The translations under genes were made by a program, and so were the position numbers. From NCBI RefSeq assembly GCF_055900595.2, contig NZ_CM148325.1: 64,000 nt of DNA. One strand, 5' to 3'. Under the pieces are notes generated by a model, which was not told the DNA's origin, searched no databases, and saw only the letters and a program-made list of their open reading frames with translations. Below, piece after piece: positions 1 to 21,880 of the stretch (its first letter is position 1; the number at the start of each line of letters is the position of its first letter).

Positions 1-145
1 CTTCCTGGTATGCGGATTCTTTCGGGAGATAGTAATTGGCATCCGCCCATTCAACGGCGGTCTGTGGCTCCGGCCTGAACAGTGAGCGAAGCCCGGCGCG
101 GACAAAATGCCGCAGCCTGTTAACCTGACTGTTCGATATATTCAC
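1..145 (-). CDS. Terminase large subunit (lambda A-like), N-terminal part, truncated by window edge
   Basis: Reverse translation from GTG at 145 reads (M)NISNSQVNRLRHFVRAGLRSLFRPEPQTAVEWADANYYLPKESAYQE, which matches the lambda gpA N-terminus from memory; overlaps the end of Nu1 as in lambda. Confidence 0.7.
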   Translation of the reverse strand, partial: MNISNSQVNRLRHFVRAGLRSLFRPEPQTAVEWADANYYLPKESAYQE

Positions 146-665
146 TCAGCAACCCCGGTATCAGTTCATCCAGCGCGGCTGCTTTGTTCATGGCTTTGAT
201 GATATCCCGTTTCAGGAAATCAACATGTCGGTTTTCCAGTTCCGGAAAACGCCGCTGCACCGACAGGGGGATCCCGTCGAGAATACTGGCAATTTCACCT
301 GCGATCCGCGACAGCACGAAAGTACAGAATGCGGTTTCCACCACTTCAGCGGAGTCTCTGGCATTTTTCAGCTCCTGTGCGTCGGCCTGTGCACGCGTAA
401 GTCGGTGGCGTTCGTACTCAATAGTCCCTGGCTGGAGATCTGTCTCGCTGGCCTGCCGCAGTTCTTCAACTTCCCGGCGCAGCTTTTCGTTCTCAATTTC
501 AGCATCCCTTTCGGCATACCATTTTATAACGGCGGCAGAGTCATAAAGCACCTCATTACCCTTGCCACCGCCTCGCAGAACGGGCATTCCCTGTTCCTGC
601 CAGTTCTGAATGGTACGGATACTCGCACCGAAAATGTCAGCCAGCTGCTTTTTGTTGACTTCCAT
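120..665 (-). CDS. nohD: Terminase small subunit (Nu1-like)
   Basis: 181-aa ORF MEVNKKQLADIFGASIRTIQNWQEQGMPVLRGGGKGNEVLYD..., recognised as lambda Nu1 / DLP12 NohD. Confidence 0.9.
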   Translation of the reverse strand: MEVNKKQLADIFGASIRTIQNWQEQGMPVLRGGGKGNEVLYDSAAVIKWYAERDAEIENEKLRREVEELRQASETDLQPGTIEYERHRLTRAQADAQELKNARDSAEVVETAFCTFVLSRIAGEIASILDGIPLSVQRRFPELENRHVDFLKRDIIKAMNKAAALDELIPGLLSEYIEQSG

Positions 666-679
666 TGTTCATTCCACGG

Positions 680-900
680 CCAAAAACAGAGAAAGGAAAC
701 GACAGAGGCCCAAAAGTTCGTTTTCAGCACCTGTCGCTTCCTTTCTTTTCAGGGGGTATTTTAAATAAAAACATTAAGTTACGACGAAGAAGAACGGAAA
801 CGCCTTAAACCGGAAAATTTTCATAAATAGCGAAAACCCGCGAGGTCGCCGCCCCGTAACCTGTCGGATCGCCGGAAAGGACCCGCAAAATGATAATAAT
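680..900. other. cos region (cosN cohesive-end site at about 843..854, flanked by cosB/cosQ-like sequence)
   Basis: AGGTCGCCGCCC at 843..854 is the reverse complement of the lambda 12-nt cohesive end GGGCGGCGACCT, directly upstream of Nu1 on the minus strand. Confidence 0.6.
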
Positions 901-1053
901 TATCATCTACATGTCACAACGTGCATCTACGCCATCAAACCACGTCAAATAATCAATTATGACGCAGGTATCGTATTAATTGATCTGCATCAACTTAACG
1001 TAAAAACAACTTCAGACAATACAAATCAGCGACACTGAATACGGGGCAACCTC

Positions 1054-1248
1054 ATGTCAACTAAGAACAGAACCCGCAGAACAACAACCCGCAACATCCG
1101 CTTTCCTAACCAAATGATTGAACAAATTAACATCGCTCTTGAGCAAAAAGGGTCTGGGAATTTCTCAGCCTGGGTCATTGAAGCCTGCCGTCGGAGACTA
1201 ACGTCAGAAAAGAGAGCATATACATCAATCCAGAGTGATGATGAATAA
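1054..1248 (+). CDS. ylcI: Small prophage protein at the lambda right end (YlcI-like)
   Basis: 64-aa ORF MSTKNRTRRTTTRNIRFPNQMIEQINIALEQKGSGNF...; position between cos and bor as in lambda/DLP12. Confidence 0.55.
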   Translation: MSTKNRTRRTTTRNIRFPNQMIEQINIALEQKGSGNFSAWVIEACRRRLTSEKRAYTSIQSDDE

Positions 1249-1607
1249 ACATCCCGGTTTCTTCCACCATCGCACCGGAAAAGCGACTATGAGGGTAACC
1301 CTGCGTCTGTCAGCACAGTAAAACCCGGTGTGCATCGTTTTTGATTATTCCCGCACACTCACGCAGAAGGAATTCCCCGTCGGGCTACGGTCATGGTTAA
1401 TGCGGGAATACGGCGACGATACAGCGCAGCTAAAAGGGTAATGGACAGAAAGAGCGGTTTATTTCATTCCACAGGATTCTGAGTGCCCCCCTCCTCCAAT
1501 AGGCTGAGCATCCACCTATATAGTTTTAATTTTCATCAATCCATTTAACTATCGTTTAATTGTTGTCACATAGGATTCTGCCGTTTTTAACAATGCAGGA
1601 TAATAAG

Positions 1608-1901
1608 ATGAAAAAAATGTTGTTTTCTGCCGCTCTGGCAATGCTTATTACAGGATGTGCTCAACAGACGTTTACTGTTGGAAACAAACCGACAGCAGTA
1701 ACACCAAAGGAAACCATCACCCATCACTTCTTCGTTTCGGGAATTGGACAGGAGAAAACTGTTGATGCAGCCAAAATTTGTGGCGGCGCAGAAAATGTTG
1801 TTAAAACAGAAACCCAGCAAACATTCGTAAATGGATTGCTCGGTTTTATTACTTTAGGCATTTATACTCCGCTGGAAGCGCGTGTGTATTGCTCACAATA
1901 A
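1608..1901 (+). CDS. borD: Bor lipoprotein (serum-resistance family)
   Basis: MKKMLFSAALAMLITGC... signal peptide with lipobox Cys; matches Bor. Start taken at the internal ATG 1608 of the track ORF 1560..1901. Confidence 0.9.
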   Translation: MKKMLFSAALAMLITGCAQQTFTVGNKPTAVTPKETITHHFFVSGIGQEKTVDAAKICGGAENVVKTETQQTFVNGLLGFITLGIYTPLEARVYCSQ

Positions 1902-1932
1902 TTGCATGAGTTGCCCATCGATATGGGCAGCT

Positions 1933-19586: not shown

Positions 19587-19639
19587 TATTCGCATTCACC
19601 CTCAAGCGTATTAACCAACAATTCAGGGATTAATGAAAG

Positions 19640-19858
19640 ATGGCAGACATCATTGATTCAGCATCAGAAATTGAAGAATTACAGCGCAACACAGCAATAA
19701 AAATGCGCCGCCTGAACCACCAGGCTATATCTGCCACTCATTGTTGTGAGTGTGGCGATCCCATAGATGAGCGAAGACGCCTGGCCGTTCAGGGTTGTCG
19801 GACTTGTGCAAGTTGCCAGGAGGAGATCGAACTTAAGAACAAACAATGGGGACTGTGA
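19640..19858 (+). CDS. TraR/DksA-type C4 zinc-finger protein
   Basis: 72-aa ORF ...HCCECGDPIDERRRLAVQGCRTCASCQ...; four Cys in CxxC...CxxC spacing. Confidence 0.6.
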   Translation: MADIIDSASEIEELQRNTAIKMRRLNHQAISATHCCECGDPIDERRRLAVQGCRTCASCQEEIELKNKQWGL

Positions 19859-19905
19859 TGGCCTCAAAGCAGCAAATTTCAACATCGTCCAACTGAGGTG
19901 TAAAA

Positions 19906-20184
19906 ATGTTCAGAATCATTTTTCCTAACACCTGGTACGTCGACCACCACGGCACTCCCTGCAAAATCCTGCGTTCTACCCACAACAAAGTTCACTACAT
20001 CCGAAAAGGCAGAACATGTATCGCCAGCATGTTCCGCTTTAATCATGACTTTGAACCTGTGAATAAAGCTGATGCAGATCGGATAGCAGAAGAGATCGAA
20101 ACGGCAGAACACATTAAGAAGTTACGTGACATGCGTTCAAAAAGCAGAGGTAACCATGGAATCATACAGCCTCACACTCGATGA
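19906..20184 (+). CDS. Hypothetical protein (92 aa)
   Basis: ORF MFRIIFPNTWYVDHHGTPCKILRSTHNKVHYIRKGRTCIASMFRFNHDFEPVNKADADRIAEEIE...; no family recognised. Confidence 0.3.
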   Translation: MFRIIFPNTWYVDHHGTPCKILRSTHNKVHYIRKGRTCIASMFRFNHDFEPVNKADADRIAEEIETAEHIKKLRDMRSKSRGNHGIIQPHTR

Positions 20185-20527
20185 GGCCTGTCAGTTTCTT
20201 AAGATATCCAGACCAACCGCCACCAACTGGATACGAACAGGCCGCCTACAGGCAACACGTAAAGATCCAACCAAGCCAAAATCTCCTTACCTCACAACAC
20301 GGCAAGCCTGCATTGCGGCGCTTCAGTCTCCGCTGCATACTGTCCAGGTGAGCGCGGGTGATGGCATAACAGAGGAAAGAAAATGTCACTCTTCCGCAGA
20401 AATGAAATATGGTATGCCTCGTATTCGCTCCCGGGCGGGAAACGAATTAAGGAATCTCTTGGCACAAAGGACAAGCGGCAAGCTCAGGAGTTGCACGACA
20501 AGCGAAAAGCAGAACTCTGGCGAGTAG
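20156..20527 (+). CDS. xisD: Excisionase (DLP12 type); end uncertain, frame overlaps the int start
   Basis: [50 protein letters not shown]... (Xis/AlpA-like HTH); reading frame stays open to 20527. Confidence 0.5.
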
Positions 20528-21546
20528 AAAAGCTAGGGGATTTACCTGATGTCACTTTTGAAGAGGCCTGCCTAAGATGGCTTGAGGAAAAAGCTGATAA
20601 AAAATCTCTCGATTCAGATAAAAGCCGGATTGAGTTCTGGCTTGAACATTTTGAGGGTATAAGGCTTAAAGATATCTCGGAGGCAAAGATTTACTCTGCT
20701 GTAAGCAGAATGCATAACAGAAAGACGAAAGAAATATGGAAACAGAAAGTTCAGGCCGCCATCAGGAAAGGTAAAGAACTGCCTGTTTATGAACCAAAGC
20801 CAGTATCAACTCAGACAAAGGCAAAGCATCTTGCCATGATAAAGGCCATTCTCCGTGCTGCAGAACGCGACTGGAAGTGGCTGGAAAAAGCGCCTGTCAT
20901 CAAGATACCAGCGGTCAGAAACAAGCGAGTCAGATGGCTGGAAAAGGAGGAAGCAAAACGCCTTATTGATGAGTGCCCCGAACCACTGAAATCTGTCGTC
21001 AAGTTTGCGCTGGCAACTGGTCTGAGAAAGTCGAACATCATAAATCTGGAATGGCAACAAATCGACATGCAGCGACGAGTTGCCTGGGTGAATCCAGAAG
21101 AGAGCAAATCAAACCGCGCCATTGGTGTGGCGCTGAACGATACCGCCTGTAAAGTGTTGCGTGATCAAATAGGCAAGCATCACAAATGGGTGTTTGTACA
21201 TACCAAGGCGGCTAAGCGAGCAGATGGAACATCAACGCCTGCGGTCAGGAAGATGCGCATCGACAGCAAGACATCATGGCTATCAGCTTGTCGTCGTGCA
21301 GGAATTGAAGATTTCCGTTTCCATGACCTCAGACACACCTGGGCAAGCTGGCTGATTCAGTCAGGCGTCCCATTATCAGTGCTTCAGGAAATGGGCGGAT
21401 GGGAGTCCATAGAAATGGTTCGTAGGTATGCTCACCTTGCGCCTAATCATTTGACAGAGCATGCGAGGAAAATAGACGACATTTTTGGTGATAATGTCCC
21501 AAATATGTCCCACTCTGAAATTATGGAGGATATAAAGAAGGCGTAA
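20383..21546 (+). CDS. intD: Tyrosine integrase (DLP12 type)
   Basis: 387-aa [53 protein letters not shown]...[39 protein letters not shown]...; 3' end adjoins tRNA-Arg. Confidence 0.9.
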
Positions 21547-21561
21547 CTGATTGAATTGTAA

Positions 21562-21638
21562 TGGCGCGCCCTGCAGGATTCGAACCTGCGGCCCACGACT
21601 TAGAAGGTCGTTGCTCTATCCAACTGAGCTAAGGGCGC
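21562..21638 (-). tRNA. argU: tRNA-Arg (anticodon UCU)
   Basis: Reverse complement reads GCGCCCTTAGCTCAGTTGGATAGAGCAACGACCTTCTAAGTCGTGGGCCGCAGGTTCGAATCCTGCAGGGCGCGCCA; cloverleaf with TCT anticodon; prophage integration target. Confidence 0.9.
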
Positions 21639-21880
21639 GTTGATACCGCAATGCGGTGTAATCGCGTGAATTATACGGTCAACCCTTGCTGAGTCAATGG
21701 CTTTTGATCTGGTTGCTGAACAAGTGAACGACCGCGTCTGATTTTCTGATTTATTTCGCTATAGCGGCAAACAAACGTACACCGCTGCGCGTCTGAATCA
21801 AGAAAACCCGTATTTTCATGTATCAAAGTACAATTTCCCGCCCTAACGGAAAATTGTCCGATCCTATGAGACTGATAACT

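Follow-up and report, generated by a model that had tools for sequence, protein, structure and literature searches.

A well-preserved mosaic lambdoid prophage at argU, a fuller form of the DLP12 remnant of K-12

Of 638 complete genomes, 74% carry a DLP12-type element at argU (PMC6379469). The copy in Escherichia coli K-12 (MG1655, NC_000913.3, 564755-586056) is without most of the replication gene P, all of O, the cII-like gene, cro, cI, a kinase gene, a phosphatase gene, kil, gam, bet, most of exo and the 5' half of xis. Deposited phages with the same integrase (Int) and 123-aa excisionase (Xis) are PhiR26_1 (PV340555), PhiR34_1, PhiR30_1, ev243 and 2G7b (100% in ev243, PhiR30_1 and PhiR26_1); PhiR26_1 has a full lambda-like head and tail module, and its record gives MG1655 as host. 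Here we describe the left end of a 64,000-nucleotide stretch of contig NZ_CM148325.1 (assembly GCF_055900595.2), the whole of which we call the window and to which all coordinates refer. Its first 21.6 kb (<1-21606) are very probably the attL-proximal part of a lambda-like (siphovirus-type) temperate prophage that a tyrosine integrase of P22/DLP12 type placed in the 3' end of argU. The prophage is well preserved and is a fuller form of K-12 DLP12, which is a derivative of the same phage type decayed by deletion and insertion sequences (IS). It is of a kind already known, an ordinary mosaic lambdoid whose type is present in public genomes and phage collections.

An earlier note on this DNA had proposed a mosaic DLP12-type prophage at argU, far more intact than the MG1655 copy, and alignment to the K-12 reference supported this segment by segment within the window:

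1-1265: 97.9% identical to K-12 DLP12 (nohD, cos)
1554-3842: 93.5% identical (essD, rrrD, rzpD/rzoD, borD)
6071-8358: 98.2% identical (quuD, ylcG, rusA, ybcO, ninE, ybcN)
8358-11460: K-12 has ybcM, ybcL, ybcK, ylcJ, emrE and renD::IS3 instead
11460-11781: kept in K-12 as a P pseudogene fragment (peaD)
11781-18627: absent from K-12 DLP12
18627-18932: kept in K-12 as an exo pseudogene fragment (exoD)
18932-20288: absent from K-12 DLP12
20288-21700: 99.93% identical, with one mismatch over the 1413 nt that span the argU junction

The statement of the earlier note that MG1655 DLP12 had lost or replaced most of its early region (IS3, emrE, ybcK/L/M) was thus accurate. The two elements have in common the argU site, the xis frame with its stop codon, and Int, of which 387 of 387 residues are the same as in K-12 IntD. 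They differ in that an ant/c4 module and orf115 stand in the window against ybcK/L/M, emrE and renD::IS3 in K-12, that the porin gene carries IS10 in the window and IS5 in K-12, and that ybcV and ybcW are present in K-12 DLP12 only. The sole lesion seen in the window copy is the IS10 in this non-essential porin moron.

Genes were identified from the open reading frame (ORF) listing together with PHROGs, NCBIfam, Pfam, PADLOC, Rfam and ARAGORN. The attachment end reads as follows:

21562-21638, - strand: argU, tRNA-Arg(UCU), found by ARAGORN and Rfam, the sole tRNA gene in the window
21562-21606: attL core, the prophage-supplied 3' 45 nt of argU, TGGCGCGCCCTGCAGGATTCGAACCTGCGGCCCACGACTTAGAAG, placed by the K-12 prophage boundary
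20383-21546, + strand: Int, 387 aa, IntD-type tyrosine integrase
20156-20527, + strand: Xis, 123 aa, P22 type (phrog_2907, 6e-46, profile positions 2-117 of 117)

The 45-nt core occurs once in the window, and int ends 15 nt from argU. The xis frame runs from an ATG at 20156 to a stop at 20525-20527 and overlaps int by 145 nt. This length had been given correctly in the earlier note, which had called it unusually long; that part did not stand, since a deep overlap is a trait of the family (124 nt between a 351-nt xis and int in the reference records of both P22 and SfI) and the excisionase match is full-length. Xis has 76% identity with its P22 counterpart over 122 residues, joins the HTH_17 N-terminal domain to the long C-terminal part that marks members of its family (about 116 aa), extends 7 codons beyond the P22-type xis, and is also identical in a related strain (locus L001). 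The RefSeq annotation of L001 and of a further related strain, L003, labels the start of xis (the equivalent of window 20156-20221) as an incomplete or truncated HTH-domain pseudogene. This label is an annotation artefact, the ORF being a full-length 123-aa P22-type excisionase.

From int leftwards, the ORF map and family matches give the lambdoid order of int-xis, recombination, immunity, replication, nin, Q, lysis and cos-terminase:

18897-20184, + strand: small early-left ORFs (orf60a/DUF1317, orf63/DUF1382, orf61, TraR-like, DUF4222; RefSeq names in L001)
18226-18906, + strand: exo (phrog_149)
17444-18229, + strand: bet (phrog_252)
17142-17438, + strand: gam (phrog_259)
16859-17065, + strand: kil, KilR-type FtsZ inhibitor (phrog_294, 1e-38; NF008465)
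14128-14817, + strand: cI repressor with S24 (LexA-type) autocleavage domain (phrog_4, 9e-73; PF00717)
13793-14023, - strand: Cro-like (YdaS-type) repressor (phrog_35; PF15943)
13184-13723, - strand: cII-like/YdaT-type regulator (phrog_163, 4e-66; PF06254)
12168-13187, - strand: replication protein O (phrog_277, 5e-163)
11470-12171, - strand: replication protein P (phrog_109, 1e-98; 95.3% to lambda)
6771-8175, - strand: nin block of ylcG, rusA, ybcO, ninE and ybcN (98.2% to K-12 DLP12; phrog_34, 131, 288, 72)
7720-8175, - strand: ybcN, NinB/Orf family (phrog_72)
7550-7720, - strand: ninE
7267-7557, - strand: ybcO
6908-7270, - strand: rusA
6302-6685, - strand: Q antiterminator, quuD type (phrog_79, 2e-53)
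2888-3103, - strand: S holin, essD type (phrog_9876, phrog_20)
2391-2888, - strand: R endolysin, rrrD type (phrog_7, 4e-69)
1933-2394, - strand: Rz spanin (phrog_13, 9e-79)
1992-2174, - strand: Rz1, embedded in Rz (phrog_3198, 4e-30)
1608-1901, + strand: bor/iss lipoprotein moron (phrog_260, 4e-59)
1054-1248, + strand: ylcI, DUF3950 (phrog_949; RefSeq name in L001)
780-900, - strand: cos site, with GGGCGGCGACCT and a cosB-like sequence read directly
120-665, - strand: Nu1/nohD terminase small subunit, 181 aa (phrog_57, 5e-77)
1-145, - strand: 5' end of the terminase large subunit A, running past the window edge (A/Nu1 97.9% to lambda)

All genes that the earlier note had listed were recovered in place and at full length, with family-match E-values of 1e-27 to 1e-163, above chance. 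These were lambda-type exo-bet-gam (PHROGs matches and alignment to lambda), a complete immunity region of cI, cro and a cII-like gene (PHROGs and Pfam), O and P with ori, the nin genes ninB, ninE, ybcO and rusA, and Q (PHROGs matches and iterons), a complete holin-lysozyme-Rz/Rz1 cassette with bor (PHROGs matches), and cos with the start of the terminase genes (alignment to lambda, phrog_57). In cI, the AG, GDSMS and VKR motifs that hold the Ala-Gly, Ser and Lys of S24 are readable. The ori lies within O, where five iterons (12630-12746) adjoin an AT-rich stretch (12602-12631), and cosN is cut between 854 and 855, to which the lambda genome ends 1 and 48502 map, respectively. The visible early, replication, nin, Q and lysis genes have lengths equal to those of PhiR26_1, which shares int, xis, Red, cI/cro/cII-like and O/P at 96-98% (immunity and O/P 96.7%) as well as the late region and an early leader without N.

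Compared with lambda (NC_001416), cos/Nu1/A' is 97.9% identical, bor-Rz 94.3%, P with the 3' part of O 95.3% and gam-bet-exo-orf60a/63/61 97.3% (the same value holds for gam-bet-exo, 17142-18906), and no other segment of lambda aligns. Lambda's N, cIII and rexAB are missing from the window, as are its types of int/xis, cI, cro, cII and Q; S and R are of DLP12 type, and the attachment site differs. With P22 (NC_002371.2), the element shares an Int of 387 aa (72% identity) and a xis set deep in int, whereas the P22 Xis stops sooner (116 aa), the tRNA target is another one and the remaining genome has an unrelated layout. Judged by these alignments, the mosaicism is real, with lambda-like, P22-like (Int 72%, Xis 76%), Rac-like (YdaS/YdaT/KilR) and P1-like (c4/ant) modules. 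At any one place, the block was covered to at most 81% in complete RefSeq E. coli genomes and to at most 76% in deposited phages, and none of the deposited relatives has the IS10.

The part of the prophage beyond the window can be approached through relatives. A search with a 225-aa ORF of the window (orf225, see below) led to GCA_964249055.1 (CAXUAK010000001.1, loci L009 and L015), and 18 further similar places lie beyond those shown. Gene order from exo to Nu1 is the same there; across 17.7 kb (1-3824 and 5152-19037) L009 has 3 mismatches to the window; it lacks only IS10 and continues with the full 641-aa A at the point where the window breaks off. On the same record, L015 has intact A, W, B (portal), C and D. 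Several points weigh against an intact prophage in the window strain. Its head and tail genes and attR fall beyond the left window edge, while pL, the operators and read-through of a hairpin at 19562-19580 (see below) are predicted features. The argU element of the near-clonal strain E400634 is a differently decayed remnant, 90-99.7% identical to the window in shared pieces. The capsid gene E of L015 has 91 codons only, and the genes next to it encode a P4-type integrase, AlpA and a D5 primase. Finally, the relative L008 has no head or tail genes, with tail-fibre fragments, appY and ompT standing right after Nu1. Since L009 is by far the nearer of the two to the window, a retained head region nevertheless appears more likely than its loss. 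That the prophage may be partly inducible, as the earlier note proposed, is plausible, but these two closest relatives disagree.

The interruption of E suggests a more specific state, in which a complete helper prophage carries a helper-embedded phage-inducible chromosomal island (PICI) in the capsid gene, so that virions would depend on prior excision of the satellite. The island of about 11 kb (L015 15437-21926; L023 5186-17966) splits E near codon 90 and contains an integrase, AlpA, D5 primase, SSB and its own E-like and D-like genes; in other genomes it ends in these E-like and D-like genes, after which the 3' part of E and FI to H follow. It matches the published helper-embedded PICI 11capE at site E:Phage_cap_E:80 (PMC10111431). 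The same prophage in GCA_964249055.1 thus argues for such an island, but the E region falls outside the window, and the window strain is already distinct from this relative by its IS10. We give this state a sizeable chance that falls somewhat short of even.

Another explanation is that deletion, less extensive than in K-12 DLP12, has left a large defective remnant, in which head and tail genes are lost and no virions are made, leaving at most Red expression, replication in place and lysis upon the SOS response. Such a remnant would resemble L008, which matches window 1-7350 at 99.3% and has the same IS10::porin junction before it runs into tail-fibre fragments, appY and ompT; moreover, the near-clonal E400634 and E600003 retain no more than remnants at this site, where remnants are very common (PMC6379469). 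It is nonetheless unlikely, because all visible genes are full-length and the window is far nearer to L009, with its 3 mismatches in 17.7 kb and its continuation into full A, W, portal, C and D, than to L008, which is 0.7% divergent. That the arrangement is simply that of reference K-12 DLP12 has next to no chance of being right, as the MG1655 alignment proved it not identical: despite the identical Int and late and nin segments that are 93-98% identical, about 8.2 kb of the window are absent from K-12 and about 3.1 kb are replaced there, the IS elements differ (IS10 against IS3 and IS5), and ybcV and ybcW are missing from the window.

The early region was also examined for its control signals and for an N gene:

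14024-14127: oR/pR/pRM region with AACAAC/GTTGTT half-sites (inverted repeat 14062-14086)
16383-16410, + strand: intrinsic terminator closing the cI-kinase-phosphatase operon (stem of 6 G-C pairs, then a T-run)
16500-16600, + strand: oL/pL-like region, a predicted promoter of TTGACG, a 17-nt spacer and a TTTAAA-like hexamer
19562-19580: terminator-like hairpin among the early-left ORFs (terminator scan)

Four AACAAC/GTTGTT half-sites were counted in 14020-14140 and five in 16500-16600, against an average of 0.14 per 100 nt elsewhere. The clusters fit operators that oR and oL would share, and this clustering at both regions, together with gene order, suggests that a pL under cI control drives kil, gam, bet and exo. 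No N-sized ORF lies between the pL-like promoter (about 16560-16595) and kil, and no ORF of at least 35 aa was found from the terminator behind the phosphatase gene to the kil ORF. The possible absence of N had been noticed before and holds, but its scoring as a lesion does not: the 460-nt N-less leader is kept at 85-96% in at least 16 deposited coliphage genomes (among them the PhiR series, IdasGreatGrand, Turner, Perceval, 4A7, D2, 1W and 3W), and none of these has an annotated N gene under the leader match. Because this leader is common to so many coliphages, the absence of N reads as a property of the lineage and not as decay. An RNA of Put-like or nut-like type that could substitute for N gave no Rfam match, and the 180-nt pL leader folds no more stably than shuffled sequences (z = -0.38). 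A short Arg-rich ORF at 16688-16750 (MKRTRERRCDQLKSTQHFIP; MKRTRERR...) was considered as an N substitute and rejected, as it shares the reading frame of kil, stays open in five relatives (PhiR26_1 and four others; GTG start, CAG), where it leads into a 125-aa Kil-containing product, and is cut by a TAG stop in three (the window, L010 and L011).

Taken by homology, the prophage would work as follows. In the lysogen, the LexA-like cI would bind AACAAC-type operators at oR and oL and thereby silence both a rightward operon (cro, cII-like, O, P, nin, Q) and a leftward one (kil, gam, bet, exo, xis, int). RecA-stimulated autocleavage of cI would derepress both operons, after which O and P would fire the iteron ori and Q would release late transcription across the porin/IS10 region into S-R-Rz/Rz1 and then cos and terminase. 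Int and the 123-aa Xis would excise the element at argU, for which the leftward transcript would have to pass the hairpin at 19562-19580 to reach xis/int without N.

The most unusual cargo of the prophage is a rare pair of genes that sits where lambda has rexAB and phage 933W has stk:

14913-15638, + strand: Hanks-type Ser/Thr kinase, 241 aa (phrog_2361, 2e-60; PADLOC mad6, PD-T4-6)
15635-16378, + strand: PP2C phosphatase, 247 aa (NCBIfam Stp1_PP2C, 1e-31)

The pair follows cI directly and in the same orientation, has a GC content of about 35% and is backed by the strong terminator listed above. The kinase domain matches PD-T4-6 and mad6 at 1e-34 to 5e-39 and also the Stk2 defence kinase, and the motifs GxGxxG, YARK, HRDxKxxN and DFG are readable; the pair itself is not among the listed defence systems. 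At the DNA level, the cassette was found in none of 50,697 deposited phage genomes and in 14 of 5,426 complete E. coli genomes, always at 99.9% identity or more; the deposited relatives of the prophage carry other cargo at this site (a lipoprotein gene in PhiR26_1), as they do at the orf115 site. Its position and its co-orientation with cI are those expected of a prophage kinase exclusion system (933W Stk, PD-T4-6), but the kinase has only 241 aa and is paired with a PP2C phosphatase, so that it is at most a candidate for this class. Tentatively, and with more doubt than confidence, the pair might be a self-contained two-gene exclusion (abortive infection) system, an analogue of rexAB/stk run from the prophage maintenance operon, in which the phosphatase would restrain a minimal kinase until superinfection.

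Between the nin block and P, the window carries a variable segment of 3 kb in which a C4/ant set, absent from the earlier list, was found:

10918-11265, + strand: orf115, opposite to its neighbours (phrog_5959, Pfam VCH_CASS14)
8283-10552, - strand: inserted module (orf225, orf66, ant, c4), bracketed by 117-nt direct repeats
10326-10413, - strand: isrK/c4 targets (Rfam isrK, 60.7 bits)
10216-10301, - strand: C4 antisense RNA (Rfam, 72.7 bits; gathering threshold 45)
9561-10169, - strand: anti-repressor with Ant/Bro-N and P22_AR_C domains (phrog_245, 1e-54)
9198-9398, - strand: orf66
8360-9037, - strand: orf225, 225 aa (phrog_27260 only)

C4 RNA and a1/b1 target sites upstream of ant on the same strand identify a P1 immI-type module, in which the c4-a1b1 Rfam score (40.6 bits) is under its threshold of 46.7. 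This P1-like set in the nin region (9561-10413) would be a second, RNA-controlled route of induction. The direct repeats (8166-8282 and 10553-10669) are 117 nt long, 78% identical and both ylcH-like, and enclose the 2.3-kb module; they are probably the recombination linker that brought it in, such linkers being sites where lambdoid modules are exchanged. Over its first 23 residues, orf225 shows similarity to the C-terminal end of the DNA polymerase III theta/HOT family. PADLOC gave no match for orf225, orf66, orf62 or orf115, at the last of whose sites other phages carry ren or PD-lambda-1 (the latter, a defence gene, in PhiR26_1).

The porin moron lies between Q and the lysis genes:

3695-6112, + strand: porin moron, nmpC/ompD type, split by IS10 (Porin_1 Pfam match on the 3' ORF)
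3823-5151, + strand: IS10, 1329 bp (ends and duplication read directly)

The element is an IS10 by its 402-aa transposase and its RNA-OUT (97 bits, 3868-3937). As a simple insertion it breaks the porin gene after about 40 codons, and a 9-bp target duplication without mismatch, TGCCAAGCA (3814-3822 and 5152-5160), borders it on both sides; its ends, this duplication and RNA-OUT confirm it as the obvious lesion that the earlier note had named. In L009 the porin is intact at the same place (360 aa). IS10 is present at the same porin site in three prophage contexts (the window, L007 and L008), with copies that are 99.2-99.7% identical; L007 and L008, which were found through the ORF at the IS10::porin junction, have early regions that differ from that of the window. 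A shared ancestral IS10::porin allele was rejected, given that L009 is near-identical up to both IS10 ends and yet without IS10. The pattern suggests repeated independent insertion of IS10 at a hot-spot target, TGCCAAGCA.

To the right of the prophage, window 21513-64000 is ordinary core chromosome (fimZ, sfm genes, folD, cysS, purEK and the allantoin cluster, on to qmcA and ybbJ). Over these 42.5 kb it differs from E. coli E400634, which came from human stool in Kenya, by 8 mismatches. A near-identical chromosome with a different element at argU indicates that the prophage was recently exchanged on a near-clonal background.

Beyond annotation, the significance of these results is small. For automated annotation, the 123-aa xis should count as a full-length excisionase and not as a broken HTH pseudogene, and a missing N should not be taken for decay in phages of this lineage. 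Anyone working with the strain should note that the Red genes are intact, that the lysis cassette is complete and that the repressor is SOS-cleavable. Overall, the argU locus is one of fast prophage turnover, and the window shows concretely the ancestral form behind the DLP12 remnant of K-12.

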